Origin: Solobacterium sp.
GTDB lineage: Bacteria > Bacillota_I > Bacilli_A > Erysipelotrichales > Erysipelotrichaceae
Direction of reading: 5' to 3'
Length of the DNA stretch: 64,000 bases
Assembly (NCBI GenBank): GCA_015256455.1
Contig: JABZMB010000001.1
Coordinates: forward strand, 45,514 to 109,513
This document shows, piece after piece, positions 9,729 through 64,000 of this stretch (the stretch's first letter is position 1; each line of letters begins with the position of its first letter). The notes under the pieces were generated by a model. It did no database searches and was not told where the DNA came from. It saw nothing but the letters and a program-made list of their open reading frames with translations. The translations under genes were made by a program, and so were the position numbers.

Positions 9729-11498
9729 TTATTTTGATTGTTTAAACTTGCGAATAAAGATAAGGGCAGCGATACAGAACGCTCCGATTCCAACAGCACC
9801 ATACATCATTACATTTGTCGCATCAGATGTCTTTGGTGTAGGTTTACTTGGTGCTGGTGTAGGCTGTACAGGCACCGGTGTAGGTGTTGGTACATATGTA
9901 TTTGTAACCGTAAAGCCATCTGTAAGATTACCCTCTACACTTGCGGTGTAATTTGTGTAAGTATCTTCCGTTACACTGTAGTTAATCGCATTTCCTTGCA
10001 TGTCTGTAACTGGCATCGTAACTGTCTCTTTCCAGTTATTTGTTGCGTTTAATACAATTGGACTACCTGTTTCAATTCCATTTGCTAAAACATGTAATGT
10101 TACTTCATCTAGCATATGAATTGGATCTGCCCAAACTTTCTTTACTTCAAATGTCTTTAGTTGACGATATACAAAGATCACTTCAATCGTTGTATTACCA
10201 ATGACTTTACCTGTTACATTAGCTGGTGTTTCTACAAGTTCATATCCAGCGATTGTCTTTTCAGTTGCAGTATATGCCGCATTTTCAAGTCCATTTGTAA
10301 CAACTGTTTCCTGTGGTGCCAGCTCATTACCTGCTTGATCTAAATACTTAGCTACGACGTTACCTCTAGGTGCACGTCTTGCATTTGAACTTAATGTTCC
10401 ACCATTTACCGTAAGATTATGTTGTGAAGTCTTAGGTGCTTCATTATTAATTTGTGATTTGAGCGCTACAGGAAGGGTGTTATTTGTAACGGTTGAAGTA
10501 TCCTTTACGATTAGCGGTAAATCTGGTCCTAAACGATATTGTGCCGCAATATTTTCGTCATCCATACTAATGATTTGGACAACAACCTTCGTTGGTTCAA
10601 TTGAAAGAATCTTTGTCTTTACTCTCCTCTTAGGGAAGAATACTACACCATTTCCATTTGCACGTGTGGCTGCTGTATCAGCTGTCATAAAGCGGAAGTT
10701 TTGGGGATTTACCTCAGTACCTACCGCAATACGTGTTGTATCGAATTCAACTTTTCCATCTGTTAGTTCATAAGTCAGAACATCACCTGGCTTTAGTGGT
10801 GCACTATCAGGGTTGTTACTGCCTGAGGAATAACCACTTGGTGTTAGAGTTGCAGCACGAATTTCATCTGAGGAGTTTGTCTCTAAGTTGATTGTGCCAT
10901 CTAACACCAAGAATGTTGGAACTTTATTTTGGAATGTACGTCCTGGAACATTGTATGAATTACTCGCTAGTTCTGTTCCATCATAGAGAATCTTCGCTAC
11001 ACGGTTGTAAGCTTGATTCTTAATAAAGTGATTAGAGCGAACGTTTCCACCAATATCAAAGTTGACTTCATCATATTCACCATTGAAAGTAACAGTTAAG
11101 TATGTATTCTCAGTATACTCATTGTCATAAGTTGGATTGATGACATCACTAAATGTATCAACATAGTGATCTTCATAATGTACGCTCAATTTACCAATTA
11201 CTTTTTTCGTACCCGTCGCATCTGTTGTAGTAACATCAAGCCCATTTAATGGGTTAATATTGATGTTTTCAAAATCATAGCGTATGGTATCACCCGCATG
11301 AACTTGACCTGTTACTTCAGCGTGGATATTAAATTGGATCTGTGATGAGTAGTCGTTTGCTTGGGATGTCTGTATCGTTGCGGTATTTGTTACAGTAAAT
11401 CCCGGTGCTGCATTAACACGAATTCCTGTTGTATGAAACAACATTCCTATCGCAAGCACTAGGGCACTTAGCGTGCGGATTAGATTTTTTGCTTTCAT
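9729..11498 (-). CDS. Cell-wall-anchored surface protein with CnaB/SpaA-type isopeptide domain and non-canonical TPKTSD sorting signal
   Basis: Start taken as MKAKNL, with an AAGGAG RBS 6 nt upstream. Signal peptide present. The C-terminus has a CnaB-like domain (FEVKKVWADPIHM...TVTNTYVP), a Pro/Thr linker, TPKTSD, a hydrophobic segment and a basic tail RKFKQSK. Confidence 0.75.
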   Translation of the reverse strand: MKAKNLIRTLSALVLAIGMLFHTTGIRVNAAPGFTVTNTATIQTSQANDYSSQIQFNIHAEVTGQVHAGDTIRYDFENININPLNGLDVTTTDATGTKKVIGKLSVHYEDHYVDTFSDVINPTYDNEYTENTYLTVTFNGEYDEVNFDIGGNVRSNHFIKNQAYNRVAKILYDGTELASNSYNVPGRTFQNKVPTFLVLDGTINLETNSSDEIRAATLTPSGYSSGSNNPDSAPLKPGDVLTYELTDGKVEFDTTRIAVGTEVNPQNFRFMTADTAATRANGNGVVFFPKRRVKTKILSIEPTKVVVQIISMDDENIAAQYRLGPDLPLIVKDTSTVTNNTLPVALKSQINNEAPKTSQHNLTVNGGTLSSNARRAPRGNVVAKYLDQAGNELAPQETVVTNGLENAAYTATEKTIAGYELVETPANVTGKVIGNTTIEVIFVYRQLKTFEVKKVWADPIHMLDEVTLHVLANGIETGSPIVLNATNNWKETVTMPVTDMQGNAINYSVTEDTYTNYTASVEGNLTDGFTVTNTYVPTPTPVPVQPTPAPSKPTPKTSDATNVMMYGAVGIGAFCIAALIFIRKFKQSK

Positions 11499-13084: not shown

Positions 13085-13927
13085 CTATGCTATAAAGCGT
13101 GTAATGCAGAGAATCAGGACGATAATTCCGAGAATAATACGATATATGCCAAATACCTTGAAGTCATTCTTACGAATGTAATTCATTAAGGTACGAATCG
13201 CAATAATAGAAACGATAAACGAAACCACTGTACCAATGAGTAAAATCATGAGTGGCCAAAAGCCGAATGAGAAGTCTGCTTTGATAATCTTTAAAAGGCT
13301 TGCACCAAACATTGCTGGAATTGCCATAAAGAATGAGAACTCTGCAGCTGTTGCACGATTAAATCCTAATAAAGTTGCACCAAAGATTGTACTTCCAGAA
13401 CGACTTGTTCCTGGAACCAAAGCCAAAATCTGGAACATACCAACACCGAAGGCTTTCTTAGGTGTGATTTGACTAACATGTTCAATCGTAAACTTCTTTT
13501 CTCTATTCTCCATCCAGATAAACAGGATACCGTAGAGAATCAAAGTAATACCGATGATATATGGTGCACTCATCACATTGTCAATCCAATCATTCAGTAA
13601 CATTCCTGCTACTAATGGAATGGATGCCACGACAACCATTAGCCATGTGTGGTAGATATTCTTTTTCTTAGGCTCTGATACGTTTTTGCCAAATGGGCAT
13701 AAACGCTTCCAATACAACAACAGTACAGACAAAATACTACCGAACTGAATCACAACCTTGTACACATCCCAGAAGGCTTTATTTTTTTCAGGATCCGCAA
13801 AGACATTCAAAGGCATAAACGTCTGTAATAAAATTAAATGACCTGTTGAACTGATAGGTAGAAACTCTGTTACACCTTGTACAATTCCAAAAATTACAGA
13901 TTTAATAATATTTAAGATAATATCCAT
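13085..13927 (-). CDS. uppP: Undecaprenyl-diphosphatase (BacA/UppP)
   Basis: 280 aa. The N-terminus VTEFLPISSTGHLIL is the characteristic UppP motif. Confidence 0.9.
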   Translation of the reverse strand: MDIILNIIKSVIFGIVQGVTEFLPISSTGHLILLQTFMPLNVFADPEKNKAFWDVYKVVIQFGSILSVLLLYWKRLCPFGKNVSEPKKKNIYHTWLMVVVASIPLVAGMLLNDWIDNVMSAPYIIGITLILYGILFIWMENREKKFTIEHVSQITPKKAFGVGMFQILALVPGTSRSGSTIFGATLLGFNRATAAEFSFFMAIPAMFGASLLKIIKADFSFGFWPLMILLIGTVVSFIVSIIAIRTLMNYIRKNDFKVFGIYRIILGIIVLILCITRFIA

Positions 13928-13941
13928 TTTTGTTAACCTTC

Positions 13942-15405
13942 TTAGTCGTGATTAATACGATCAGCTCGCACTAAGTCTGCCTTGATTTGTTTGATACGTT
14001 TCGCAAATGCGCGTAAATCTTTCATTCGCCACATCCAGTTTGGAGCACCTACGCTACCAGGCATGTTTAAGCGTGCTTGGCTTCCAGCATGGATCCAGTC
14101 TGACATCGGAATAATTACCATGTCCGCATTACTATCCAACGAATAGTCAATCACGTCATCGACAAAGCTATGCTTGCGATATCCGTGTTTCCATAGGTAT
14201 TGACGCATCTTTCTTCTTAAAGAAGCAGGTTGCTGGCAGTACCATGAATATGTCGTATCGTTGTCATGAGTCCCAGTATATACCAATAGATGCTTTTTAT
14301 CTTCTTCCATGCCCTCAGGGTCAAATGTGAATTGAACAATACGCATACCTCTAAACTTGTAGTGATCTCTTAATTCCAATACTTCTGGACGTAAATCTCC
14401 TAAATCTTCCGCAACGATAGTAAGGTTTGGATATTGTTTGAATAATGTATCAAACAACTCATATCCAGGTGCTTCAATCCACTCACCTTCAATCGCGGTT
14501 GGACAATCTGCTGGAATCTTCCAATATGTATCAAAGGCACGGAAGTGATCAACTCTTACAACGTCAAACATCTCTCCCATGTATGACATACGCTCAATCC
14601 AGAATGTGAACTTATCCTTCTTCATAAAGTCCCAGTCATAAATAGGATTGCCCCATCTTTGTCCTGTCGCTGAGAAGTAATCTGGTGGAACACCAGCGAT
14701 AAACGTTGGTCTACCATCTTGATTTAATAAGAAGTTTTCACGGTGTGCCCAAACATCTGCAGAATCCAAACCTACATAGAATGGGATATCACCCACCATC
14801 TGAATTCCTAAACTATTTGCATACTTTTTCAGTGCATGCCATTGTTGGTACAACACAAACTGCAAGAACATCTGGTATGCAATTTCATCGTCATACTTTG
14901 ATAAATCTAATTTCTGATTAATAGGATAATCTTTCTGTTCCTTCTCCCATTCATTCCAAGGTCGTAAATTGTTCGCAACTTTAAAAGTCTTAAAGATTGC
15001 ATACTCTTTTACCCAAGGCTTCTTGATAAAGGATTCGTATGCCTCATCCTTTTCAAACTTCTGATAGGCAAGGCGCAAATACTTATCATGATACTGGCGA
15101 ACTTTCTCATACTGAATTGCATCATCGTTACGATGATAGGAAGGCACCTTCTCTAATAAACCTTGTTGCGCTAATACATCTAATGATATATAGAGCTCAT
15201 CAACCGCATAAGATGAATACGGCTGATAAGGTGAATTTCCATATCCTAAAGGGTTTAATGGCAACAACTGCCAGATGCCCAGACCCGACTGGTGCATCAT
15301 CTTCACAAAATCATATGCTTCTTTTCCAAAAGTACCACAACCGTGGCGGCCAGGCAGAGATGCGACTGGCATTAAAATTCCTGCTTTTCTCATATTACTA
15401 TTCAT
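13942..15405 (-). CDS. malQ: 4-alpha-glucanotransferase (amylomaltase, GH77)
   Basis: 487 aa. N-terminus is RKAGILMPVASLPGRHGCGTFGKEAYDFV, followed by conserved GH77 blocks. Confidence 0.9.
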   Translation of the reverse strand: MNSNMRKAGILMPVASLPGRHGCGTFGKEAYDFVKMMHQSGLGIWQLLPLNPLGYGNSPYQPYSSYAVDELYISLDVLAQQGLLEKVPSYHRNDDAIQYEKVRQYHDKYLRLAYQKFEKDEAYESFIKKPWVKEYAIFKTFKVANNLRPWNEWEKEQKDYPINQKLDLSKYDDEIAYQMFLQFVLYQQWHALKKYANSLGIQMVGDIPFYVGLDSADVWAHRENFLLNQDGRPTFIAGVPPDYFSATGQRWGNPIYDWDFMKKDKFTFWIERMSYMGEMFDVVRVDHFRAFDTYWKIPADCPTAIEGEWIEAPGYELFDTLFKQYPNLTIVAEDLGDLRPEVLELRDHYKFRGMRIVQFTFDPEGMEEDKKHLLVYTGTHDNDTTYSWYCQQPASLRRKMRQYLWKHGYRKHSFVDDVIDYSLDSNADMVIIPMSDWIHAGSQARLNMPGSVGAPNWMWRMKDLRAFAKRIKQIKADLVRADRINHD

Positions 15406-44761: not shown

Positions 44762-45388
44762 TTATTTCCCGAATATTTTACGCTTTTTTAGCCAAAGTTG
44801 ATTTACACTAACCACATAGATTGTAATCTTACAGTCATAACCCTTTAAACAACGTAACGCTCCTAATAAAGAAGCACCTGTTGTAATCGTATCATCAACC
44901 AACAAAATCTTCTTTGGCACAACACAGTTTTTCTTTAGTACAATGTTATCCGACATCTTCATGCGCTCTTCCACACTGCGATTTTTCTGGTCAAAATCAT
45001 AAACTTTTTCAAAGAGATCTAACTGTCGCAAAGGCAAAGTGGAAAACATCTTTTCAAGATGATGGAACCCACGTTTTGCGATTTTTTCTTTAGAACTTGG
45101 TAAATAACAAATTGTATAACCAAAAAATCGTAATAACAACCACCACCGAAATGGATACAGAAATACTGTTTTCAATGCTTCATCAAAACATTCCTTATAT
45201 TGAACTAATAATTTTGCAAAGGCATCATCGTAGATATAACTAGCATACAGTTTATGTCCGTGAAACTTCATGTGAAACTTAACCTTACTTAGATGATTTC
45301 TGCAGGCATGGCACAATGGATCATCATTCTCCAGTATATCGATGAAATCCCCATCTCCTTTTTCTATTCCACACATTAAACAGCGCAT
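44762..45388 (-). CDS. comFC: ComF family protein (ComFC-like phosphoribosyltransferase domain)
   Basis: 208 aa. N-terminal Cys-rich region CLMCG...CHAC. The C-terminal PRT motif is LLVDDTITTGASL. Confidence 0.75.
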   Translation of the reverse strand: MRCLMCGIEKGDGDFIDILENDDPLCHACRNHLSKVKFHMKFHGHKLYASYIYDDAFAKLLVQYKECFDEALKTVFLYPFRWWLLLRFFGYTICYLPSSKEKIAKRGFHHLEKMFSTLPLRQLDLFEKVYDFDQKNRSVEERMKMSDNIVLKKNCVVPKKILLVDDTITTGASLLGALRCLKGYDCKITIYVVSVNQLWLKKRKIFGK

Positions 45389-46521
45389 ATTTGATTCGCC
45401 TGCTCTATCTTATTTTTGCAAAGTTGCACTAGTTCTGTCTTTTCACTACATAAAAACAGTACATCACCCTCTGGTGATGTAAAGCTTCTTCCTGCTCTAC
45501 CTGCCATTTGAATCAACCCAGCTTCATCAAAGACAGAATGATTCGCGTGCCATACACAGATATCTGCCTTAGGAATAGTTACGCCTCTTTCTAGAACTGT
45601 TGTCGCTATCATCACACCTAACGGGTTTTGTTTGAAATGATATATGATTTCATCCCTATCTTCACTTTCACTTGTACAGACATAACATTGCATAAAGATA
45701 TTAAGAATAAGCCCTAGTATCTTGGCAGTTTTAATAGTTGGCACAAAGATAATTCTAGGATTGCATGCATGTTTATTTATCCATCGTATCAGTATAAAAA
45801 ATAATAGTACCGATGGATAAATCAATAGTCTTGGGACTGGCAAATCATGTCCATGTGGACGCTTATTCAATATGATATGATGCATCATTCCTTCTTTTAC
45901 TCTACTTAAAAGATACGCATCTGGTGTAGCAGTTAAATATATGATATTTCCTATGCAAGCATGTTTTGCAATACCATGTAATACTTCATCTCCACGATAT
46001 GGAAAGGCATCTGGTTCATCTAAAATCAACAATGAGAATTGACCTTGGTAACGATATAACTGATGCGTCGTACATACAATTAAATCACCATCAATTTCAT
46101 CTGTATGTCCACCACACACTGCTACAATCTTCGCCTTTTTAAAATATATGTTTAATCTTTCAGCCAGTTCTAGTACGACCTGTCGTCTTGCAATCGCAAA
46201 ACATACTTTGCGTTTTTCATTTAACGCATCTGCTATACTAGCAAGCACCATTTCCGTTTTCCCAGCACCACAAACACACTCCAACAATACATCTTTTGTA
46301 CGAATGTATTGTTGACACTCTTTGGACACTGCTTCTTGCAGTTTTGTTAGGGGATATTTCATGGTATATTCACTACAATCATCGTGAATATCCTCAAGTT
46401 TAATATTTATTTCCTCTTCTAATAGCAACCTTCCAAAGCCTATACATTTCCGACAATAATATCCATGACTCCCTTTATAAAAATATGATTTTTGTGTATT
46501 ACCACAACGTGGACATTTCAT
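45376..46521 (-). CDS. comFA: Competence helicase ComFA (DEAD/DEAH-box)
   Basis: Start taken as MKCPRCGN, which has an RBS AGAGGTG (N-terminal zinc finger). Contains Walker A CGAGKTE and the DEAD-like LILDEPDA block. It overlaps comFC. Confidence 0.75.
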   Translation of the reverse strand: MKCPRCGNTQKSYFYKGSHGYYCRKCIGFGRLLLEEEINIKLEDIHDDCSEYTMKYPLTKLQEAVSKECQQYIRTKDVLLECVCGAGKTEMVLASIADALNEKRKVCFAIARRQVVLELAERLNIYFKKAKIVAVCGGHTDEIDGDLIVCTTHQLYRYQGQFSLLILDEPDAFPYRGDEVLHGIAKHACIGNIIYLTATPDAYLLSRVKEGMMHHIILNKRPHGHDLPVPRLLIYPSVLLFFILIRWINKHACNPRIIFVPTIKTAKILGLILNIFMQCYVCTSESEDRDEIIYHFKQNPLGVMIATTVLERGVTIPKADICVWHANHSVFDEAGLIQMAGRAGRSFTSPEGDVLFLCSEKTELVQLCKNKIEQANQICAV

Positions 46522-46609
46522 TTGTTCACCTCTAAAAATGTATATGAAAATAATCATCAATTTCCACAAAAAAAGGTTGATAGTATGAACTATCAACCTA
46601 AAGTATTAC

Positions 46610-48778
46610 TTATTGTTTGTTCAACTTAAATCTCTTTACTACTGCAAAGCCAAATCCTGCAAGAGCAATAATCACTGCTCCAATATAGATTGGTAATTGA
46701 GAGTTATCACCTGTCTTAGGTGTAGCTGACTGTGCAGTTTCAGGAGCAGCTAAATACTTCAATGTAAATGTAATTTCATTGCTTGTTGGATTTGTTGAGT
46801 CAGCACCCGAAGGTAGCTGTACAGCATCCCACTTCAATGCAAATGCTACAACATTACCTGTTGCACCATCTGTAGCCTTCGCCATTAATAAGCCCGCCAT
46901 GGAACCCGCTACTGTATAGTTTGTATTTGGACGAGCTGTGCTATTAAAGTGTACGCCATCCACTACAACTTCCATTGTATTTTCCATTCCAAGTACTGCA
47001 TCCTTAAGATCTGCGAATGTAGTTACTGGAGCAGCCACCGTCATGTTGACTATAATAGTCTTTCCATTTACTGTTTGTGAAGTAATCCTATACTTACCAT
47101 TGTCATGTAGTAAGGATACTGTTGGGTTTGTATCAAAATCCATTTCATTTGGAAGAGTTAATGAAGCTGTAAATGTTGCACTGTAATCTGCTAAAGCAAT
47201 TGTAGTTGGATCTACATTAGCTCTATTAAATGCATTTTCAATTTCGGTCATCTTTGTTTTAACAGAAGAAACATCTAAGGAACCTGTAAATGCAAGATTA
47301 GCATCTCTTGTTGTTTCGTACACTGCATTATGCTGTGTTTCATTTCCAACAAGAATATCACCAGGAAGTGTCATCACTTCTTCATAACTTCTTTCTAGTG
47401 GGGCAGCATAGTTTACAGTTAAAGCAATCGCACTAGGATTGTTTACACTTGCTCCTGCAGCCATCTGCTTACCAACCCACTTCAAGTCAAAGTTGATTGT
47501 ACTTCCAGAAACGTTACTTGTAGCTATAGCAGTTAAGTTACCATTTACAGTACCGATTACTTCGTAGTTTCCTCCAGCTACAGATCTAGCATCGAAGTTT
47601 GCGGCAGGAACTTTAATCTTCATATCATCTGCCACTGCATTTACTGCATTCTTTAAATCTGTAAAATTTGTAATATTTGCTGCATTAGCAAGTTCAAATG
47701 TTACGGTAGCACTCTGTATATTACCAGTCACATTACTTATAACAAATGAACCATTAGCACCTTCTAAAGTAGTATTTGCTAATGAAGGTACATCCTTAAA
47801 ACTTAAGCCAGTTGGTAATGTAATTGTAGCTGTGAAAGATGTATTTAAGTTTGCTAAGTTAATTTGATTTGCAGCTGCAGAGTAGCTTGCTTCAATAGCA
47901 GCCATCTGATCTTTAATTGTCTTTGCATGGAATAAACCAACAAAGTTAAGGTCATCTGTCTTTTGTTTTGTCACTGCATTATTTGCAGTATCGTTATCAA
48001 TTAATAAGTCCGCATCAACATCTACTGTCACATTTGAATTTGTAACAGTTGGCTGCTCAAATACATCACTAGTCGCAAAACTATCTGTTAATGAGATTGT
48101 AGCTGTATCTGCTTGGAATTCCGTAGGAATACGAATAAAGCTACGACCTGTAATAAATCCAAAGCTACCCGTACTAGTAATCTTTAAATTTTCATCGATT
48201 GCATTTGCAGCTACGTACCCATTTGCGTTAATACTATATGGAATAGTTAGAGTTACTTTTCTATTCTGTGTACCAGCATTCACATCACTTTGATAAAGTG
48301 TATTGATACCAGCCCAATTTTGTTGTGCTAGAGGTAAATCAAAAGTTACAACATTTCCTGAAACAGAATATGTAATTGTTGCTCCTGGGATAATTGCGGA
48401 TGTGCTTGCTGTAGTTGGTGTACCTAGTGTTACTTCATTAGGGAATGTAACACTATATTTGATACTAGCCACCTTACCTGCTGTTCCATCGATATTCCAT
48501 GGATATGCAGCACCATACGTTGTCATATATGGAGCTAATTCAGACATAACATCTGCGATTGGAACATCTGCTGTCCAAGTACCATTATATGTACCATGAT
48601 TGCTTCCAGTGACTCCACTCACAGTTCCAGAGTTACTAATATATTGTGCAATTTGTAGAGTGCCTGCCGCGTTAACAAAAGTCACATTTGGCATAAGAAA
48701 GCCAAGTGTAACCATCAATGTTGTAAATAGTGTAATGATTTTAGTAAACATTTTGCTGAATCCTGCATTTCTGCTCAT
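46610..48778 (-). CDS. Cell-surface repeat protein with C-terminal TPKTGD sorting signal
   Basis: Start taken as MSRNAGF, which has a GGAGG RBS. Signal peptide present. Two ~200-aa internal repeats are visible (…FDLKWVGKQMAAGASVNNPSAIALTVNYAAP… and …FALKWDAVQLPSGADSTNPTSNEITFTLKYLAAP…). The C-terminus reads TPKTGD, a hydrophobic helix, then KRFKLNKQ. Confidence 0.7.
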   Translation of the reverse strand: MSRNAGFSKMFTKIITLFTTLMVTLGFLMPNVTFVNAAGTLQIAQYISNSGTVSGVTGSNHGTYNGTWTADVPIADVMSELAPYMTTYGAAYPWNIDGTAGKVASIKYSVTFPNEVTLGTPTTASTSAIIPGATITYSVSGNVVTFDLPLAQQNWAGINTLYQSDVNAGTQNRKVTLTIPYSINANGYVAANAIDENLKITSTGSFGFITGRSFIRIPTEFQADTATISLTDSFATSDVFEQPTVTNSNVTVDVDADLLIDNDTANNAVTKQKTDDLNFVGLFHAKTIKDQMAAIEASYSAAANQINLANLNTSFTATITLPTGLSFKDVPSLANTTLEGANGSFVISNVTGNIQSATVTFELANAANITNFTDLKNAVNAVADDMKIKVPAANFDARSVAGGNYEVIGTVNGNLTAIATSNVSGSTINFDLKWVGKQMAAGASVNNPSAIALTVNYAAPLERSYEEVMTLPGDILVGNETQHNAVYETTRDANLAFTGSLDVSSVKTKMTEIENAFNRANVDPTTIALADYSATFTASLTLPNEMDFDTNPTVSLLHDNGKYRITSQTVNGKTIIVNMTVAAPVTTFADLKDAVLGMENTMEVVVDGVHFNSTARPNTNYTVAGSMAGLLMAKATDGATGNVVAFALKWDAVQLPSGADSTNPTSNEITFTLKYLAAPETAQSATPKTGDNSQLPIYIGAVIIALAGFGFAVVKRFKLNKQ

Positions 48779-48897
48779 ACATAAACCTCCATTTCTTATA
48801 CATTGACAAAACTTACCAACGAAAAACGATAAAATTTTACTCGGAGCCACATCATATTATAAGTATTTTACACTTTATTTTGTGTCTCAATTATACA

Positions 48898-51800
48898 TTA
48901 TGCCTTCATTATCTTTTTGTCAACATTTACAATAAACGCAGCCATTAATGCGATACTCATCATAATCGCATACATTAACATATTATTTTGATCACTTGTC
49001 TTAGGTGTTGAAATAGGTGCCTTATATACATTTGTAAATACAGCTTCATTTACAACTGTGCCATCTGCCTTTTCAACATGTGTATCTGCCACAAGCTGTC
49101 CAGCCACATCTGTTACCTCAAATGTGATTGTATATTGGGTTGTATCATATGTGTAATTTGCGATACCATCATTGATTTCACTAATTACATATTGATATGT
49201 ACCTGCCTGTGTAATTTCGAAGATACCAAATTCTACTTCACCACTACCGGTTACTTCAGCTTGTTTTACACCACCAACACTACCTACTGGCATTGGATCT
49301 GCTGGATTAACAGCTCTCATCTCAAAATGGAATCTAGATGGATTTGTCGGATTACCTTCTACGATCTTCTTGACTGGTGGATCAACCAATACTGGTTTTG
49401 GTACATATGTATTTACAATCTTTGTGCCATCATAATGAACTGTAAAGTCTCTACCACTAATTGTGATTGTGCTTCCTTCTTCCACAACATTACCATCACC
49501 ATCTAGTTCCTTTACAGTATAAGTATTTGCAGCAGACGTAATTGTGTCTGTCACTGGTAAATTGGAGAATGTTGCCGTAAAGTGATTGTTCTTATCCACA
49601 ACCACTTCTTGTACTTTATTGCCATTTTTATATAGGGCAATTGTAGTAGAAAGCGTATCAATCTCACTTTGTGTTAAATTAGACCATTCTTTAGTAAATG
49701 TCTTTGTCGTTGTTGCAGGGATAAGTGGCGTTACTTCTAAAGACTTCTTATTTGTAACTGTAAATCCTTGGTCTACATCTCCTGTTACAGTTGCAGTATA
49801 CCAAGCATCGTTAATCTTAATCTTGCCAGAGCTATCTACGCCCACTTCTTTTACAGAGTATTGATAGTTTGTACCAGTTGTTGGATTTACTACATCAATA
49901 TTATCGAAAGAAACTTCCCAGTTATTTGCTGCAGTAAGTTTCTTCTTTTCTAGAACTGTTCCATCACGGTATAACTCTACTTCTATTTCACTCACTGGAG
50001 CAGTAAGCGCAGTACCATCATAGTTCTTCCAATCCTTCGCAACCTTGATTGAAGAAGTATGAAATGTCATCGCAGCAGGCTCTAGAGTTAATGTTGCACG
50101 GTTACCATTGATATCATAATCCAATACTGGAGTAATCACGTCTATCTTATCGTTATGAGACATTGTTAAGTTATTCTCAGCCTTATATGTCACTTCAATT
50201 CTTCCGCCATCACCATTACTTAATGTTGTTTTCGTAACCAACATAAGCATATTGGCATCTGCTGGATTTGTAACAATATCATAATCTCCTGGTTGAGGAG
50301 CGTGATTGAGTGCGTATGTCTTGCCTGGCTTTAACTTAATATACTTCACTTCAAAGTTTGGCGTCGCCTCCACTTTGTCCAGTTTTAATGGTAACTGATT
50401 CGCACCTTCCGGCATGAATGCAGGACCAAAATCTAGATTCTCATTTAAGAGAGGAATAAATACATTTGCGTAGTTAATATTTGTTCCACTATTATTTCTT
50501 AGTTTGATACGCATTGTTGTCGTATCGCCTTTTTCTAATACGACTGTTGTATCTTTTTTGGTTGTTGCAGAAGTATTGTCATAGATAATTTCTGCACCTG
50601 TATCTTTATCAATTAAAGTGGAATGTGCATTTACTTCAGCTGCCTGATTTACTTTGACACCAGGTCCTTCAGACAAGGAAACCATTGTCTTACCAGAGTT
50701 TACAGCTGTACCAAATACAGCTGTATATTTATCTGTATTCCAGTTTCTTCTATCCCACTTTTCAGGTTTGATGACTGCACCAATCGCATCAAAATCCTTT
50801 GTCGTAATTCCAAGGAAGTCATTGATATGGTATGTCGCAACCTTCACTGTCTTATCCGCATGAACATCAAACTTGATTGTCATGTTCTTACTTGTGAAGT
50901 TTGGCTGATATTGACCTCTTGTTTCTTGGCCAATATCAATGGAATACTTCCAAACTTTGACTTTCTCACCATCTTTTTCAAACTCACCTACATATGTTGG
51001 TGTACTCAATGTTCCGTTTGTTACTTGTAAGTTTGAATATGTAAATCCTTCTGGCATAATCATGTAAATCTCTGGTTCCTGTAGTGGGTTCCAATCCCAG
51101 TTTGCGTCATCAATACGTCCAGATACTGTAAAGGAATTTCCGCCAAGAATTTGTGTCTGATTGATTGAACCAACACCATTCTTTACTTCAGGTACCTTTG
51201 GCTTACCAATTAGGGTATATGTATCGCCAGCAGTTGGTGTAGCGCCTGTGTTGTATAGTTTTACAGTTGTCTTAACATTATCGTTAGTACCCACCTTCCA
51301 GCTTCCATATACACCATTTGGAATATATGACCAACCGTAGAATTCACCATCAGAGATAAACTGATTATTAGGATTCCATGTATCTAATAAATCACGTTGT
51401 GGACGAATGCCATCATACTGTCCAGGAATTTGACCAATATCAACTTTGATTGTTTTGATAGAATCATTAATATCAAGTCCTAGTGCTGTATTTGTGATTA
51501 ATGCAGATACATTTAATGGAGATGCATTTGGCTTCTGTAAAATACTTGGATCAGCTACACCACTAGCACCACTAGCAGATGTCCAATAGATGTTTCCATA
51601 TACCATATCTGCGTGATATGGAATTGTAACACCACGAATAATCGCAGTATCTGTTTCATCAATTGTCATTTCAAGTGTCTTTGGTTTTGTTGGTGTAGAT
51701 AATTCGTTCTTAATTAATAAGGAACCTAAACGAACATTATAGGTATCATATTTTTTATATGCCCAGTTTACTGCTGTATCAACTAAGGCATGAGAAGCTA

Positions 51801-52905
51801 CCTGTTCTGGATCAGAACCGTCAATCAACTTCACTGTCATGGTAGATACGTTGCTAGAAGTACGATCTACGTTTGGAGTATCATCCCAGATTGTTTTCTT
51901 AAAGTTTTTTAGAGTAATTGTAAACGAAGAACCATTTGCACGTGTACTATTTGACGGAACCTTTACATGAGGTACAAACTTTGGTGTTCCAGAATAAGAA
52001 CCAGGTTCATTCCACTCTAATTTCGTGGTCTTCATTCCACCACTCTCTGTCGTAGAAACAACAGTACCATTTGAGTGATATAACTGTGTCTCTTCGAGAG
52101 ATATAAACTCAATGTCACTAGGATATTCAATTTCAACGGTTGTCTTACTACCTGCTTCTGTCAAGGAATTTCCACCTGTAATGGAAGCGAGCAATGTTGT
52201 CGTTGTATCACCCTTACTGATAGTCTCTGTTGATTGGTCTGTCCAGAAGTTATATCTAAACTCTTCTGTAGACTTCGCATTAAAAGAACGTGCATCTACA
52301 GATGGAGTTGAATCTGTACTTAGACTAATCTGAAACAAGTTCGTAAGAATCTGATTTGGATCCTGATTTAGATATGCACTGTCAATGCTGAAACTAATTT
52401 CTCCTGCAGAAGCCACATTTGTTAGTGATGTCTTTGACTTAAAAATTAATTCGCCATTTCTTGACTGAGCAGAACCTGCAGTTGGATATCCATATGGGGA
52501 AGTACCTGTCCCTGTAGGTGTATTAACCAACTGTTCAAAACCCGTTGCAGTAATTGGACCTTCCGTAAATGTTGAACCTGGAAGTGTAGTAATATACGCT
52601 CCATTTCCAAGATTTAGATGAAAATAGGTATTTGAAAACTGCAAGGATGATGGAACAGAATATTCTACATCCAATGAGTAAATAACCCCTGTTTTTAGTT
52701 CAGGAACATCACCTGCCAATAAATCAGCTACCTGAGCACCTGTAGATGAGTCCTTTACAACTACTTTATTAAATTTAAAACCGGTTGTATCCTCAGCCTG
52801 AACGACTGCTTTTCCAGGAATAAAACCAGCGATTACGATTATAAGTGATAATAGAAACGCAAACACCCTCTGTATTCCCTTTGCAAAACAATGATTGCTA
52901 CACAT
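48898..52905 (-). CDS. Large (1335 aa) adhesin-like surface protein with CnaB/SpaA-type isopeptide domains and TPKTSD sorting signal
   Basis: RBS GGGGGAG. Signal peptide present. Thr/Asn-rich beta-rich N-terminal region. C-terminal CnaB-like domains (KVAKDWKNYDG…, TFTKEWSN…, DPPVKKIVEGNP…TNVYK). The tail reads TPKTSD, a hydrophobic segment, then KKIMKA. Confidence 0.75.
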   Translation of the reverse strand: MCSNHCFAKGIQRVFAFLLSLIIVIAGFIPGKAVVQAEDTTGFKFNKVVVKDSSTGAQVADLLAGDVPELKTGVIYSLDVEYSVPSSLQFSNTYFHLNLGNGAYITTLPGSTFTEGPITATGFEQLVNTPTGTGTSPYGYPTAGSAQSRNGELIFKSKTSLTNVASAGEISFSIDSAYLNQDPNQILTNLFQISLSTDSTPSVDARSFNAKSTEEFRYNFWTDQSTETISKGDTTTTLLASITGGNSLTEAGSKTTVEIEYPSDIEFISLEETQLYHSNGTVVSTTESGGMKTTKLEWNEPGSYSGTPKFVPHVKVPSNSTRANGSSFTITLKNFKKTIWDDTPNVDRTSSNVSTMTVKLIDGSDPEQVASHALVDTAVNWAYKKYDTYNVRLGSLLIKNELSTPTKPKTLEMTIDETDTAIIRGVTIPYHADMVYGNIYWTSASGASGVADPSILQKPNASPLNVSALITNTALGLDINDSIKTIKVDIGQIPGQYDGIRPQRDLLDTWNPNNQFISDGEFYGWSYIPNGVYGSWKVGTNDNVKTTVKLYNTGATPTAGDTYTLIGKPKVPEVKNGVGSINQTQILGGNSFTVSGRIDDANWDWNPLQEPEIYMIMPEGFTYSNLQVTNGTLSTPTYVGEFEKDGEKVKVWKYSIDIGQETRGQYQPNFTSKNMTIKFDVHADKTVKVATYHINDFLGITTKDFDAIGAVIKPEKWDRRNWNTDKYTAVFGTAVNSGKTMVSLSEGPGVKVNQAAEVNAHSTLIDKDTGAEIIYDNTSATTKKDTTVVLEKGDTTTMRIKLRNNSGTNINYANVFIPLLNENLDFGPAFMPEGANQLPLKLDKVEATPNFEVKYIKLKPGKTYALNHAPQPGDYDIVTNPADANMLMLVTKTTLSNGDGGRIEVTYKAENNLTMSHNDKIDVITPVLDYDINGNRATLTLEPAAMTFHTSSIKVAKDWKNYDGTALTAPVSEIEVELYRDGTVLEKKKLTAANNWEVSFDNIDVVNPTTGTNYQYSVKEVGVDSSGKIKINDAWYTATVTGDVDQGFTVTNKKSLEVTPLIPATTTKTFTKEWSNLTQSEIDTLSTTIALYKNGNKVQEVVVDKNNHFTATFSNLPVTDTITSAANTYTVKELDGDGNVVEEGSTITISGRDFTVHYDGTKIVNTYVPKPVLVDPPVKKIVEGNPTNPSRFHFEMRAVNPADPMPVGSVGGVKQAEVTGSGEVEFGIFEITQAGTYQYVISEINDGIANYTYDTTQYTITFEVTDVAGQLVADTHVEKADGTVVNEAVFTNVYKAPISTPKTSDQNNMLMYAIMMSIALMAAFIVNVDKKIMKA

Positions 52906-53317: not shown

Positions 53318-54367
53318 TTAGTCAATAACTGCACGAGCAGCAGCATCTTTGTAATACTTAAATTCTGTAAATACTTCTCCTTTATATGGATTCTTCTTTG
53401 TCTTTATACACGTACGGATGATGTAGATAATAGCGATAAGATTTACAATAAGTGCTAGTCCACTAACAATTGTCATCATTGTAGGATTTGCGTTAGCACT
53501 TCCTCCAGCCACAATTCCATTCAGTGTACCATCTGCGTATAATACTGGTAATGTTACCCATGGGAATGCCTTTGTACCATCTGCAAATGTTTCTTGGAAT
53601 AATGGGAATACCTGTGCAAACATACACCATATACATAAAGTATTCGCTCTATTTTGAATCCATCCACCCTTATTCCATAGTAATGCAGGAATTGTTGGTG
53701 ATAGTAGTAATGCAACACCACAGAACCATGAATGTGTTGGTAAACAGTTGTATGTATACGCAAAATTCCACACATCATAGATTAAGATATATACCCAGAT
53801 CATATCTGGCCAAATCATATCCTTTTCATCCTTAGAAGAATATACAGCCCACCAACCTGTCATACAGAAGATATTGATCAAACCTGCTAAACCATTGAAT
53901 ACATTATGCCATCCTCCATATAACCATACACCTTCAGAAGATAACCACCATTTGTACCAACCATTAATTGCTGACTCAAAATCACTTGCTACTGCAATCA
54001 AGATATTAATAGCAACAATCGCAAATGGGAATGCACGGAACCAATGTTGTTTTCCAATACCCCATTTGTATTTGATCATCATAAATCCAATACATCCTGT
54101 AAGTGATGCATAGAGTTTTGCATAATGGAACCAACCATTCATATATAGATATGTTTGGTTATGTAGTGCCCACTCTGCCCCCATTCTCGCTGATACATAA
54201 ATTACGATAAAATAAATTGTCAAAATTAATGGTAAAACAAAAAACATCAAGATACCGCCAAACTTTGTTCTACGAGAAAACTCATTTAACAAAATCAAAC
54301 TTGCAAGTACTCCTAGCATTGCGACCCATTGGTATATGGCCGAATCTCCGCTAATGTGAAATAACAT
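53318..54367 (-). CDS. Trp-rich polytopic membrane protein, unknown function
   Basis: 349 aa with about 8 predicted TM helices and many Trp (WYKWWLSSEGVWLYGGWHNVF). It contains none of the motifs recognised elsewhere in this window. Confidence 0.6.
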   Translation of the reverse strand: MLFHISGDSAIYQWVAMLGVLASLILLNEFSRRTKFGGILMFFVLPLILTIYFIVIYVSARMGAEWALHNQTYLYMNGWFHYAKLYASLTGCIGFMMIKYKWGIGKQHWFRAFPFAIVAINILIAVASDFESAINGWYKWWLSSEGVWLYGGWHNVFNGLAGLINIFCMTGWWAVYSSKDEKDMIWPDMIWVYILIYDVWNFAYTYNCLPTHSWFCGVALLLSPTIPALLWNKGGWIQNRANTLCIWCMFAQVFPLFQETFADGTKAFPWVTLPVLYADGTLNGIVAGGSANANPTMMTIVSGLALIVNLIAIIYIIRTCIKTKKNPYKGEVFTEFKYYKDAAARAVID

Positions 54368-56954: not shown

Positions 56955-57755
56955 TTATTTCTCAGGTTTTGCAAGAACAAATAATGCGTTACGTTCGTAG
57001 TTTTCGTTTCCTTCTTCTGCGAAGAAATCATACATAGACCAGTTATAGTAGAAACGTTCAGCACCATATACAAAGTAACCATCTTGATTATGGTCAGTTG
57101 TATCATAAGGATCTGCCATAATCATAACATCATCCTGCGTTGTTTCTGTTCCCATATCATCATAACCAATGACTACTTGCCAGTGTCCGCCCCACTCAAT
57201 CCAGCAAACCATTACAGCATTTCCTGCTTGGATTTCTTCCTTAAAGCGTGACAGAGGGAAAACTTCATGTGGATCTTCACCAATATGGTCATAGTTAGAT
57301 TCAATATTGAATCCACCAACACCTTCAAACATTTCTACTGCTTGTTTTACAGATGTAGGTCCAGGTGTCAAACCATTAGAGCGTAGTTTAGCAAGATCTT
57401 CTTCTCCTATATTTCCTCTTTTACCATAGAAATCCATTACCATTAAGGCAGATGCTACGCCACAACTCCACTCACTAGATTGTTGAATTGTTTTAAACTT
57501 TGGCAAAATAGAAAGTGATCCATTGCTTGTCATGTTGTAATAATCCAAAGATGTAAAATAAGGACTATCTTTATGATCTCCTGCACGTTCAACGGAATCT
57601 GAACCAGCTTCTGGATCTAAATCTTCATTATCCTCAATCTTCATTTCATCACTGTAATTACCAGTATTGTTTGCGGCTGTTTCCTTTTCAGATACAGCTT
57701 TTGTTGTGCATGCTGTCATAAGCAATGCTAGTAAAATCAAATAAAACTTCTTCAT
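56955..57755 (-). CDS. Lipoprotein with C39-like (papain-fold, BtrH/YvpB-type) cysteine peptidase domain
   Basis: Lipobox LMTACT. Acidic linker. The domain has the catalytic Cys context SEWSCGVASALMV and a His in GGHWQVVIGYDD. Confidence 0.65.
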   Translation of the reverse strand: MKKFYLILLALLMTACTTKAVSEKETAANNTGNYSDEMKIEDNEDLDPEAGSDSVERAGDHKDSPYFTSLDYYNMTSNGSLSILPKFKTIQQSSEWSCGVASALMVMDFYGKRGNIGEEDLAKLRSNGLTPGPTSVKQAVEMFEGVGGFNIESNYDHIGEDPHEVFPLSRFKEEIQAGNAVMVCWIEWGGHWQVVIGYDDMGTETTQDDVMIMADPYDTTDHNQDGYFVYGAERFYYNWSMYDFFAEEGNENYERNALFVLAKPEK

Positions 57756-61705: not shown

Positions 61706-64000
61706 TTAAGATACTAATACTCCTCCATTATTGAAAGTATAATATCTTCCACCAATGGAAATTGTTCCCGTCTTCATAGAACCATCTGTCTCTTCACCTA
61801 GATAATACCAATATCCATTGATCTTTTGCCAACCTGTTAACATATGTCCAAATGAATCTAAGTAATACCATGAACCATTAATGAGCTTCCAGCCCTTGGT
61901 GATTAAACCATTTTCATCGAGATAGTAATAATAGTTTCCATAATACACCCAGCCAACCTTCATATTACCATCTGTCCCTAGATAATAATCTTTGCCATTT
62001 ACTACAATCCAATTAAATTGTTGAATACCAAAGTCATTGAGATATTGATATTGATTGTTTGTATAGACCCAACCCTTCTGCATCTTTCCATTCTCGTCAA
62101 GATAATAGTTACGGTCCAGATATTGAATCCAACCTGTCTTTCTGTTTCCATCTGTTCCTAGATAATAATCAACTCCATCGACAAGTATCCAGTTGAATTG
62201 TTGAATTCCAAAGTCATTGAGATATTGATACTGGTTATTTGTCTTTACCCAACCTGTTTGCATTTTTCCATTTTCATCGAAATAGTAATTTCGATTTGCA
62301 TAGACTTGCCAACCTAGTTTTAATGAACCATCATCATTTGCCCAATACCAGCCTGGTTTCGCATCAATCCAACCTGTCTGCATAGCACCACTACCATTAA
62401 AGTAATACTTCTTACCTTCAATATCCGCAACACCCTTAACCATGTTTCCGTTTGTATCTAGATAATAGTTGATATCTCCTTCTTTCAACCAGCCAAATAC
62501 TTGGAATCCAAAAGCATTCAAATATTGGTAATTGTTGTTGGTATATACCCAGCCTTTCTTCATCATTCCACTATCATCGAAATAATATTTTCTGCCTGAG
62601 TATTCATGCCAGCCAATCTTTAGAGAACCATCATCATTCGCCCAGTACCACTCATTATTTACTTGGAACCAACCACCAGACATTGCTCCATATGCATCGA
62701 AGTGATAAATCTTACCATTAACTTTAGCAAACCCTATCGCCATGATGCCTGATGTTTCATCTAGATAGTATTTCTTTGTACCTAATGTTAAGAATCCTGT
62801 CTTACGGTATCCCTGTTCATCAAAGTAATACCAGTAACCATCTATCAATTCCCAATCAGAACGGGTATATGTTCCATCGAAATGACGGTACCAATAACCG
62901 TAATAATCTTTTACCCAAGCACCTTTACCTACTTGTTTTGTAAGTGGCTCAACACTTATAAAACTGATATTCTGATTTGATACCCATCCTACACTCGCAT
63001 TCCAGTCATAGGTAGCCAATGATGAATTACCAGCTGTATACATTGATTGTCCATTTACTACATGATTTGTGGACTGAATCTTATAATATCCTCCACTTTC
63101 ACCAAGAACGTTAACAAAATGAAATTTATTATATCCCGATGCATATGAAGAGTTATATAGAACCGTACTTGAAGTTAGTGATTGATATACATTTATATTA
63201 TCTCCAACGATATATCCCACCTTTGCAGAACCATAGTCTACTAAGTAACCATCATTTCCGCTTGCATATTTATCAAAACTATATGCAATGGCCGCAATTG
63301 ATACACCATAATATGGTGTAGATGCATATTTCACACTTAATCCACTACCCTTATTTCCAAAGAAACTACCGTAATAGCTAAAACGATTTCTTGTACTTAA
63401 ATATCCATTTCGTAACTGGATTCCCATTTGTTCATTAATTGATTGGGCAACACTACTATAGTAACTTGCACGATTTGGATCACTATCAACTGCATTCCAT
63501 CCAAATAAGTTATATCTTTGCTTTGCAAAGTAACTAGTACCGTAGGCTGCTTCCAAACATGCCTGCGCAAAAATCATGACTGCATTTACACCATAGGTAT
63601 TCTGAGCATCAATAAAGTACTGTCCTGAATCCCAAAGAACACTGTTTGTTCCATATCCCTTCGATGCTAAAAATCCATTATACTTATCCGCAGTAATATT
63701 AGACTTTGTTCGCAGCGGTAAAAATTGATAATAGTTAAAATATGTTCCTGCTAAATAAGAATAATATGGATCTGTATAGTAACGTACATCATCATACGAA
63801 TAGTAACTGGCACCTGTTGTCATCCAAGAAGCTGCAGGACCTACCGCAATCTCCGCAACAGTACGTGGAATAGAGCCACCTTCTGCATAACTAGAATATG
63901 CCACAAAGATAAGGTCCCTATAATTTCCATTTTGGCGAACTGTATAATACGCTCTACGTGGTCGTACATAGAATGGTGCTGAATGTTCTGAAGTATTATC
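61706..64000 (-). CDS. GH73 N-acetylglucosaminidase autolysin with C-terminal cell-wall-binding (choline-binding-type) repeats; 5' end beyond window
   Basis: The listed start at 63904 is a GTG, but the frame stays open to position 64000. The GH73 block is AVMIFAQACLEAAYGTSYFAKQRYNLFGWNA. The C-terminus has at least 10 ~20-aa repeats of the form GW..Y.N.QYQYLNDFG/YYLGTDGNMKTGW. Confidence 0.8.
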   Translation of the reverse strand, partial: DNTSEHSAPFYVRPRRAYYTVRQNGNYRDLIFVAYSSYAEGGSIPRTVAEIAVGPAASWMTTGASYYSYDDVRYYTDPYYSYLAGTYFNYYQFLPLRTKSNITADKYNGFLASKGYGTNSVLWDSGQYFIDAQNTYGVNAVMIFAQACLEAAYGTSYFAKQRYNLFGWNAVDSDPNRASYYSSVAQSINEQMGIQLRNGYLSTRNRFSYYGSFFGNKGSGLSVKYASTPYYGVSIAAIAYSFDKYASGNDGYLVDYGSAKVGYIVGDNINVYQSLTSSTVLYNSSYASGYNKFHFVNVLGESGGYYKIQSTNHVVNGQSMYTAGNSSLATYDWNASVGWVSNQNISFISVEPLTKQVGKGAWVKDYYGYWYRHFDGTYTRSDWELIDGYWYYFDEQGYRKTGFLTLGTKKYYLDETSGIMAIGFAKVNGKIYHFDAYGAMSGGWFQVNNEWYWANDDGSLKIGWHEYSGRKYYFDDSGMMKKGWVYTNNNYQYLNAFGFQVFGWLKEGDINYYLDTNGNMVKGVADIEGKKYYFNGSGAMQTGWIDAKPGWYWANDDGSLKLGWQVYANRNYYFDENGKMQTGWVKTNNQYQYLNDFGIQQFNWILVDGVDYYLGTDGNRKTGWIQYLDRNYYLDENGKMQKGWVYTNNQYQYLNDFGIQQFNWIVVNGKDYYLGTDGNMKVGWVYYGNYYYYLDENGLITKGWKLINGSWYYLDSFGHMLTGWQKINGYWYYLGEETDGSMKTGTISIGGRYYTFNNGGVLVS

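Follow-up and report, generated by a model that had tools for sequence, protein, structure and literature searches.

A tandem pair of adhesin-like Solobacterium proteins with predicted TPKT[GS]D sorting signals

Two consecutive genes for large surface proteins lie on the minus strand of a 64,000-nucleotide stretch of the genome of an uncultured oral Solobacterium sp. (contig JABZMB010000001.1, positions 45,514 to 109,513 of the forward strand; this whole stretch is called the window below). The upstream gene encodes 1335 amino acids and ends in the motif TPKTSD, and the downstream gene encodes 722 amino acids and ends in TPKTGD, in both cases followed by a hydrophobic segment and a charged tail. 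It is likely, with a probability of roughly 0.8, that they encode a pair of Sec-exported, sortase-anchored adhesin-like proteins in which TPKT[G/S]D, a motif of the class-B-type group, acts as the house LPXTG of this lineage. Solobacterium is a genus associated with halitosis and periodontitis. According to the proposed mechanism, both fibrillar adhesin-like proteins would be exported by Sec, and their C-terminal hydrophobic segment and basic tail would hold them in the membrane. A sortase encoded elsewhere in the genome would then cut after the threonine (TPKT/GD or TPKT/SD) and link that residue to the peptidoglycan. The motif would belong to the x-P-K-T-G-D group that is read by class-B-type general anchoring sortases, as in Clostridioides difficile.

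The pair had already been singled out in an earlier reading of the window made from the letters alone (hereafter the sequence-only reading), and the list of open reading frames (ORFs) confirms its tandem arrangement, the two lengths, the coordinates and the strand. That reading had also described the TPKTGD and TPKTSD signals, with their hydrophobic helix and basic tail, as distinct from LPXTG and, in the second case, devoid of the glycine; all of these elements are indeed seen in the sequence.

Secretion and sorting signals

The pattern xPKT[GS]D occurs three times among the 128,000 codons of the six reading frames of the window. Chance does not explain these occurrences, since each of the three lies in a large secreted protein, 31 residues from its stop. 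Two of them belong to the pair and the third to a 617-aa protein with MucBP and CnaB domains (Table 1) that the sequence-only reading had missed and that ends in ...PTPKTSD-ATNVMMYGAVGIGAFCIAALIFI-RKFKQSK. As this third protein has the motif too, TPKTSD is not a one-off. The true start of the third protein is probably Met29 (position 11498), which would shorten it to 589 aa; on metagenome contigs the gene is called as either 589 or 617 aa.

All three proteins begin with a Sec signal peptide, read by eye from the sequence without a dedicated predictor, which comprises a charged n-region, a hydrophobic core and an AXA-type site (VQA/E, VNA/A and VNA/A). The N-termini of the pair are MCSNHCFAKGIQRVFAFLLSLIIVIAGFIPGKAVVQA/EDT in the 1335-aa protein and ...LMVTLGFLMPNVTFVNA/AGT in the 722-aa protein, where the slash marks the predicted cleavage. 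At the other end, the motif is followed in each of the three by about 23 hydrophobic residues (best 17-residue Kyte-Doolittle mean >1.6) and by a tail with at least two Lys or Arg; the C-termini of the pair read ...STPKTSD-QNNMLMYAIMMSIALMAAFIVNV-DKKIMKA and ...ATPKTGD-NSQLPIYIGAVIIALAGFGFAVV-KRFKLNKQ, respectively. None of these signals matches LPxTG: the proline and the threonine are present, but position P4 is Thr in all three, and at P1' only the 722-aa protein has the Gly, the other two having Ser. The Thr at P4 and the Ser at P1' exclude the canonical class-A motif, not sortase dependence, because the recognised sortase classes use variant motifs and a pentapeptide other than LPXTG is compatible with such a dependence.

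Domain architecture of the pair

A protein identical to the 1335-aa protein was recovered from metagenomes (P0022). Its AlphaFold model has a predicted local distance difference test score (pLDDT) of 78.6 and consists of an all-beta chain of sandwich modules. The long passenger region (residues 38-950) matches no Pfam family and no PDB entry by sequence, and the Foldseek matches of the protein are only generic proteins with multiple immunoglobulin (Ig)-like domains, such as integrin legs and complement/macroglobulin domains, with template modelling (TM) scores of about 0.12. The C-terminal part carries two Pfam Cna_B stretches and an FctA domain, and NCBIfam recognises in it the streptococcal pilin isopeptide-linkage domain (TIGR03786). 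The CnaB/SpaA-type isopeptide domains that the sequence-only reading had proposed from short strings, all of them present in the protein, are thereby borne out. Judging from their typical Lys- and Asn-bearing strand motifs, the CnaB and FctA domains may well be locked by Lys-Asn isopeptide bonds.

No Pfam domain was found in the 722-aa protein, and PDB sequence searches gave no match for either adhesin. The AlphaFold model of the 722-aa protein (pLDDT 82) contains three beta-rich domains, the second and third of which are tandem duplicates (32% identity, E = 5e-30). In Foldseek, the first domain matches the Ig-like domains of PrgB, the collagen-binding domains of RspB, Cna, Cnm and Ace, and Gram-positive pilins (E values of 1e-14 to 1e-5, low TM); SdrC, UafA, BcpA and RrgB are also among the matches of the protein. 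The low TM scores are explained by the flexible arrangement of the domains. Since the models predict strings of Ig-like beta-sandwiches, with adhesin and pilin matches in the case of the 722-aa protein, the term adhesin-like, taken from the sequence-only reading, is a fair architectural label.

Sorting motifs in the homologues

The family of the 722-aa protein comprises 21 proteins. The window protein shares 99% identity with a fragment from a metagenome-assembled genome (MAG) labelled 'uncultured Solobacterium sp.', 95, 91 and 85% with proteins of three other Solobacterium MAGs, and 63% with a protein of Solobacterium moorei. Varied motifs occupy the same position in these homologues, and a similar hydrophobic segment and basic tail follow them. 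Every complete Solobacterium copy has TPKTGD, whereas the others have APKTGD (Shuttleworthella satelles and a Lachnospiraceae genome), NPRTGD (Bulleidia extructa), MPSTSD (GCA_019550835), LPRTGA, LPKTGA, LPKTSV or LPRTSV (Parvimonas and Gemella) and LAKTGA (Alloscardovia). In the family of the 1335-aa protein, close Solobacterium relatives end in TPKTSD, TPKTGD or TPKTND. TPKTSD is kept in three further Solobacterium MAGs and the S. moorei orthologue has VPKTSD, while about 90 Lancefieldella-type proteins have LPDTGD or LPYTGD, those of Alloscardovia LAKTGV and those of Lachnospiraceae APVTGD. Homologues of the adhesin bodies were also found with LPKTG[VY] in Parvimonas/Gemella and with LAKTG[AT] in Alloscardovia; LAXTG is the pattern of class-E sortases.

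Since the LPXTG or LAXTG of the host replaces the motif on conserved bodies, the motif is best understood as a sortase recognition site and not as a passive linker, which would not track the sortase type. This positional equivalence supports TPKT[GS]D as a true equivalent of LPXTG and with it the sorting-signal interpretation of the sequence-only reading. The passenger region of the 1335-aa protein shares 57-67% identity with proteins of Lancefieldella parvula, Alloscardovia (Actinomycetota) and Lachnospiraceae (P0044, P0047 and P0126), a spread that looks horizontal among oral bacteria, with the sorting signal apparently re-fitted afterwards. The Asp at P2' is at least as conserved as the Gly/Ser at P1', and the PKT[GS]D core with this Asp is found in all Solobacterium copies; DNPKTGDE, PVPPKTGDS and TNPKSSDS may be compared. 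A profile built from ten sorting-signal tails retrieved 37 candidates and 7 short fragments from a set of 5.8 billion proteins.

Some homologues depart from the usual pattern. Eleven of them (P0031-P0041; L007 10001-14224 and L008 1792-6015), with 60-63% identity, end in ...GGKPNT[FY]D[DE]GGMALYS.., a hydrophobic segment and KKRKYSK; the aromatic residue that follows the Thr in place of Gly would be unusual for a sortase site. The pair of Erysipelotrichaceae bacterium SUG162 (L025 1848-7765 and L009 2040-7957) ends in TPATAD and TLKTSD, the latter with a Leu where the Pro is otherwise invariant. Upstream of the pair, S. moorei (L001 1-5533) encodes a 1963-aa protein with SdrD_B and Flg_new repeats, whose C-terminus has a hydrophobic segment and a long charged tail without a recognisable xPxTxD; it appears to use a different kind of surface anchoring.

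Curated anchor models and the alternation of Gly and Ser

The tail of the 722-aa protein passes the cut-off of the LPXTG_anchor model TIGR01167 (16.5 versus 15.9 bits). Solobacterium strain variants that share a tail show what the model is sensitive to: P0023 (STPKTGDNSHLPIYIGAIIIALVGFGFAFIKRIRSNKQS) carries TPKTGD and scores 16.5 bits, and P0026, which has the same tail but with TPKTSD (ATPKTSDNSHLPIY, as also in P0142), yields no match. A single Gly-to-Ser change thus drops the tail below TIGR01167 and, therefore, automatic annotation misses the Ser substrates. The model TIGR03063 ('sortase B protein-sorting domain') recognises the VPKTSD tail of S. moorei (19.2 versus 18.15 bits), which does not reach the cut-off of TIGR01167, but it matches none of the three window proteins and gives P0015 (APKTGD) 14.4 bits, under the cut-off. 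An S. moorei fragment with TTPKTGDNSNL... is named 'LPXTG cell wall anchor domain-containing protein' by NCBI.

S. moorei and four Solobacterium MAGs retain the pair with both its motifs, the Ser form on the upstream gene and the Gly form on the downstream one. Tails appear to have been exchanged between the adjacent genes in some strains, as 1335-type bodies are found with a 722-type tail (for instance in P0144), in the Gly or the Ser form; this suggests recombination between the neighbouring genes. Because Gly and Ser alternate on otherwise identical Solobacterium tails, one enzyme probably reads both forms. Separate sortases for the Gly-type and the Ser-type signals were considered and set aside as the leading interpretation on account of the same alternation; it is simpler to assume a single enzyme that tolerates Gly, Ser or Asn at P1'. 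The SrtA of Streptococcus pyogenes accepts LPXTS in vitro (PMC9520033).

The cognate sortase

The TLxTC catalytic signature was found by a six-frame scan in no real ORF of the window, and the sortase family PF04203 is absent from the Pfam assignments of the window ORFs of at least 120 aa (the obvious SecA gene being left out). The TLxTC scan also covered 27 related loci, and the gene surroundings of five homologues were inspected; neither showed a sortase. The sequence-only reading was right about this local absence, which is normal for the substrates of a housekeeping sortase. The missing local gene is not peculiar because it is expected for the substrates of a general anchoring sortase; substrates located away from the sortase gene have been pointed out both for class-A enzymes and for the SrtB of C. 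difficile (PMC4155245). A tblastn search of the CnaB/FctA part against plasmids, aimed at TPKTG substrates beside a sortase, gave nothing closer than distant CnaB proteins from Bacillus, Aerococcus and Lactobacillus.

By analogy with characterised substrates, the cognate Solobacterium sortase is rather likely to be of the class-B type. The sequence-only reading had placed the motif closest to the (S/P)PXTG signals of class-B enzymes, which agrees with the substrates cleaved in C. difficile, Bacillus anthracis and Listeria. The native substrates of C. difficile SrtB are SPKTGDNTNL, SPKTGDSTNL, PPKTGDSTT and SPKTGDETQL; this enzyme cleaves the T-G bond and does not accept LPETG or NPQTN, and its activity is at least doubled if the pentapeptide is followed by its two native residues (PMC4155245). 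The P2' Asp of DNPKTGDE is needed for the full activity of B. anthracis SrtB, and the Listeria SrtB substrate Lmo2186 (TNPKSSDS) has a Ser at P1' followed by an Asp (PMC11987632). The residue at P4 has been proposed as the specificity determinant (PMC5118464). In the Solobacterium copies, this residue is Thr or Val and never Leu. The rule for class-B enzymes (Asn, Ser or Pro at P4) is not matched by the Thr of the window proteins or the Val of S. moorei, although NPRTGD occurs in the relative Bulleidia. In its chemistry, Thr closely resembles Ser.

Alternatively, the enzyme could be a housekeeping sortase of class A whose P4 pocket is relaxed, a possibility that is tentative and concerns only the class of the enzyme. 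It would fit with the placement of the Erysipelotrichales within the class Bacilli in the Genome Taxonomy Database, a class in which class-A sortases predominate, and with the match of TIGR01167 to the TPKTGD tail. The class-A SrtA of Filifactor alocis cuts RHLPKTGDG (PMC13257024), and the Lactiplantibacillus plantarum signal LPQTXE leaves the fifth position free and has an acidic sixth one (PMC3619620). Nevertheless, the lack of Leu at P4 in Solobacterium and the class-B pattern of the Bulleidia motif speak against a class-A enzyme, as do the PKTGD and PK[ST]SD cores shared with the SrtB substrates of B. anthracis, C. difficile and Listeria, and the fact that TIGR03063 outscores TIGR01167 on the VPKTSD tail.

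A broader version of the class-B hypothesis, which seems doubtful, is that one class-B-type sortase anchors the whole surface proteome of Solobacterium and allied oral Erysipelotrichaceae by recognising Pro-Lys-Thr and the P2' Asp instead of a Leu at P4 or a Gly at P1'. In that case, this single enzyme would accept Gly, Ser and Asn at P1' and, in the relatives, possibly Ala, Phe and Tyr (TPATAD, KPNT[FY]D). It would be a sortase with a naturally broad P1' preference, and the anchor models would systematically under-call the substrates of this lineage.

Pilus assembly and plain membrane anchoring as alternatives

Two other scenarios may explain the presence of these tails. One possibility is that the pair forms a pilus, the FctA/CnaB protein and its neighbour being polymerised by a class C sortase and the Ser and Gly signals addressing polymerisation and anchoring sortases, respectively. 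The FctA/Spy0128 and 'streptococcal pilin isopeptide linkage' domains could be explained in this way, as could the weak matches of the S. moorei orthologue to the SpaH/EbpB major-pilin and RrgB models, the pilins among the Foldseek matches, and the tandem order kept across species with Ser on the upstream and Gly on the downstream gene. Yet CnaA/CnaB/FctA-type domains are common in non-pilus adhesins too, and a protein of 1335 aa with a passenger of about 900 aa resembles a self-contained adhesin more than a shaft pilin. No sortase gene, of class C or any other, flanks the pair in the window, the four Solobacterium MAGs, S. moorei, the Erysipelotrichaceae bacterium SUG162 or the other taxa examined, and regular-expression scans detected neither a YPKN pilin motif nor an E-box (YxLxETxAPxGY) in any of the three window proteins. 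Furthermore, Gly and Ser are swapped on identical tails, whole tails are swapped between the two genes, and TPKTSD is also carried by the unrelated MucBP protein. A pilus is thus quite improbable.

Some observations weigh against sortase anchoring itself or against its class-B version. No sortase was found in the window, in the 10 kb past each of its ends (on metagenome contigs) or in 27 related loci, and the TPKTSD tails of the 1335-aa and 617-aa proteins match no curated anchor model. The DKKIMKA tail of the 1335-aa protein falls short of a textbook tail, its charged residues being just three Lys and one Asp, and the fold matches, at low TM, indicate a general adhesin-like architecture only. 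To our knowledge, Thr at P4 has not been tried on any sortase. In addition, the class-A enzyme of F. alocis cuts LPKTGD (PMC13257024), so that the PKTGD core alone is no proof of class B. In the literature searched, no paper was found on TPKTS or PKTSD as a sortase signal, nor on the sortases of Solobacterium or Erysipelotrichaceae or the surface proteins of Solobacterium.

The first two of these observations would also be expected if the hydrophobic segment simply tethered the proteins to the membrane and TPKT[GS]D were a conserved but unprocessed linker, and some predicted SrtB substrates of C. difficile are reportedly not wall-localised (PMC5569036); but a plain anchor is very unlikely given the constant spacing between the hexapeptide and the hydrophobic segment in three proteins that are unrelated to each other, the replacement of the hexapeptide by LPXTG or LAXTG on the same bodies in other hosts, and the two tails that pass the cut-offs of TIGR01167 and TIGR03063. 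Sortase-dependent anchoring of the pair therefore remains the favored reading.

Comparison with known systems

The pair appears to be an ordinary case of CnaB/FctA adhesins that a sortase anchors through a class-B-like signal specific to the lineage, and the TPKTG anchor motif has already been described. It was reported as the wall-anchor motif of a Cna-like protein on a group A streptococcal mobile element, MGAS2096_Spy1156 (PMC1949102), and I/TPKTG is found on substrates beside an extra sortase in the C. difficile transposon 023_CTn2 (PMC6814731). The variant signal that the sequence-only reading stressed is therefore real, but less novel than implied. As in Solobacterium, TPKTG is carried in both cases by large CnaB-repeat surface proteins; unlike them, the Solobacterium genes are not on conjugative elements but chromosomal, with a matching G+C content and housekeeping flanks.

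A close parallel is with the C. difficile SrtB substrates (CD0386, CD2831, CD3246 and CD3392), which have the same core, continued in the same way, as TPKTGDNSQL in the window and TPKTGDTSNL in S. moorei. These are also large CnaB or collagen-adhesin-like proteins scattered away from the sortase gene and served by a general anchoring enzyme (PMC4155245). The differences are the Thr/Val at P4 instead of Ser/Pro, and the Ser or Asn that can replace the P1' Gly in the proteins studied here. C. difficile moreover belongs to the Peptostreptococcaceae and not to the Erysipelotrichaceae, and the Solobacterium enzyme is a predicted one.

The P-K-T-G-D core and the P2' Asp are likewise shared with B. 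anthracis IsdC (DNPKTGDE) and Listeria Lmo2186 (NPKSSD), the latter with Ser at P1'. Nevertheless, those are small NEAT haem-binding proteins with Asn at P4, encoded in an operon with srtB, whereas the window proteins are giant adhesin-like proteins with Thr at P4 and no adjacent sortase. The L. plantarum signal LPQTXE follows the same logic as x-P-K-T-[G/S/N]-D, being species-specific with a free fifth and an acidic sixth position (PMC3619620), but it keeps the Leu at P4, is read by a class-A enzyme and has Glu instead of Asp. The overall plan of a signal peptide, Ig-like domains, a CnaB/FctA isopeptide stalk and a wall anchor is that of MSCRAMM/Cna- and PrgB-type adhesins; in contrast to these, the window adhesins have no match to solved structures by sequence and no Pfam collagen-binding domain.

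The understanding of sortase anchoring is unchanged by these data. Their main value lies in annotation and in oral-microbiome biology. They show that proteins of this kind drop out of the curated LPXTG model once the Gly is exchanged for Ser. A working rule for the wall proteins of Solobacterium would be [TV]-P-K-T-[GSN]-D followed by a hydrophobic segment and a basic tail. The same adhesin bodies across phyla of oral bacteria, each with the motif of its host, offer a natural case of signal re-fitting after gene transfer. If it is true that the sortase tolerates several P1' residues, the enzyme might attract modest interest in the field of sortase-mediated ligation.

Gene organization and features of the locus

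The start codon of the 1335-aa ORF is an ATG preceded by a GGGGGAG ribosome-binding site at a spacing of 6 nt. For the downstream gene, the ORF finder chose a GTG (746 aa); the ATG at 48778, with a GGAGG ribosome-binding site 8 nt 5' of it, gives the 722 aa of the sequence-only reading. The two genes are separated by 119 nt. A consensus scan found no terminator-like hairpin in this gap and one with a T-run directly 3' of the 722-aa gene, although the scan is a consensus match only and its hits in the region are no more numerous than in shuffled sequence. Because the gap is without a hairpin while one ends the 722-aa gene, the pair is probably a co-transcribed two-gene operon, as far as the sequence tells. 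The hairpin overlaps a ComFA-like helicase ORF (45376-46596, minus strand) that is listed from a TTG; the true start of this ORF is probably a downstream Met (MKCPRCGN...).

The G+C content is about 36-37% and even across the locus and its surroundings. The flanking genes are of the housekeeping kind, with comFA/comFC, secA and prfB downstream and a DUF5692 membrane protein and ispD upstream.

Table 1. Positions in the window of the adhesin-like pair, the third protein with the same signal and the candidate terminator
Feature	Position	Strand	Basis or remarks
Upstream gene, 1335-aa surface protein (signal peptide, ~910-aa beta-sandwich chain, 2 CnaB, FctA, TPKTSD)	48898..52905	-	ORF, ribosome-binding site, Pfam, TIGR03786
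Predicted Sec signal peptide, residues 1-37, ...AVVQA/EDT	52795..52905	-	read from sequence; helix 6-27 at low pLDDT
N-terminal passenger region, residues 38-950, all-beta, multi-domain	50056..52794	-	AlphaFold model
CnaB domain 1, residues 953-1053, KVAKDW ... FTVTNKK	49747..50049	-	Pfam PF05738, E 4.5e-20; motif positions
CnaB domain 2, ~residues 1069-1167, TFTKEW ... IVNTY	49405..49701	-	second Pfam Cna_B stretch; boundaries approximate, from motifs
FctA/Spy0128-like isopeptide domain, residues 1178-1295, PPVKKIV ... VFTNVY	49021..49374	-	Pfam PF12892, E 1.1e-15; TIGR03786
Sorting motif TPKTSD, residues 1300-1305, predicted cut Thr/Ser	48991..49008	-	sequence; cut site by analogy
Hydrophobic segment and charged tail, QNNMLMYAIMMSIALMAAFIVNV DKKIMKA	48901..48990	-	sequence
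Downstream gene, 722-aa surface protein (signal peptide, beta-rich domain at the N-terminus, tandem pair of 213-aa repeats, TPKTGD)	46610..48778	-	ORF, ribosome-binding site, model
Predicted signal peptide, residues 1-37, ...TFVNA/AGT	48668..48778	-	read from sequence; helix 10-25 at low pLDDT
Domain 1, residues 40-235, beta-sandwich with helices	48074..48661	-	model, Foldseek
Repeat 1, residues 245-457	47408..48046	-	model
Repeat 2, residues 462-675	46754..47395	-	model
Sorting motif TPKTGD, residues 686-691, predicted cut Thr/Gly	46706..46723	-	sequence; TIGR01167 over residues 687-716
Hydrophobic segment and basic tail, NSQLPIYIGAVIIALAGFGFAVV KRFKLNKQ	46613..46705	-	sequence
Terminator-like hairpin and T-run, directly 3' of the 722-aa gene	46574..46599	-	consensus scan only
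Third protein with the same signal, MucBP and CnaB, 617 aa	9729..11582	-	Pfam MucBP 408-473, Cna_B 479-562

Other genes of the window

The DUF5692 multi-pass membrane protein (53318-54367, minus strand) has counterparts with 56-58% identity in three of the related loci (L004 4237-5301, L019 13302-14345 and L020 ~13422-14453). Its gene lies upstream of the pair in Solobacterium and downstream of the homologue of the 722-aa protein in Shuttleworthella/Lachnospiraceae. A role as a partner of the system was considered and rejected, as S. moorei, Bulleidia, Parvimonas, Gemella and Alloscardovia lack the gene next to the pair. In Shuttleworthella, DUF5692 directly precedes an oxidoreductase/HypA gene set that runs on the same strand. 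Since it heads that gene set, its link to the adhesins is probably a matter of co-transfer or coincidence.

At the right end of the window, a gene for a 944-aa glucosaminidase with choline-binding repeats (61706-64000, minus strand) continues past the last position (L013 10693-19694). It is followed by genes for an acyltransferase, a BCCT transporter, nucleotidyltransferases and a choline kinase, which suggests that Solobacterium has choline-decorated wall polymers and choline-binding proteins. Finally, a 266-aa protein (56955-57755, minus strand) shows weak matches to the papain-like Peptidase_C70 (AvrRpt2) and C39-like families.

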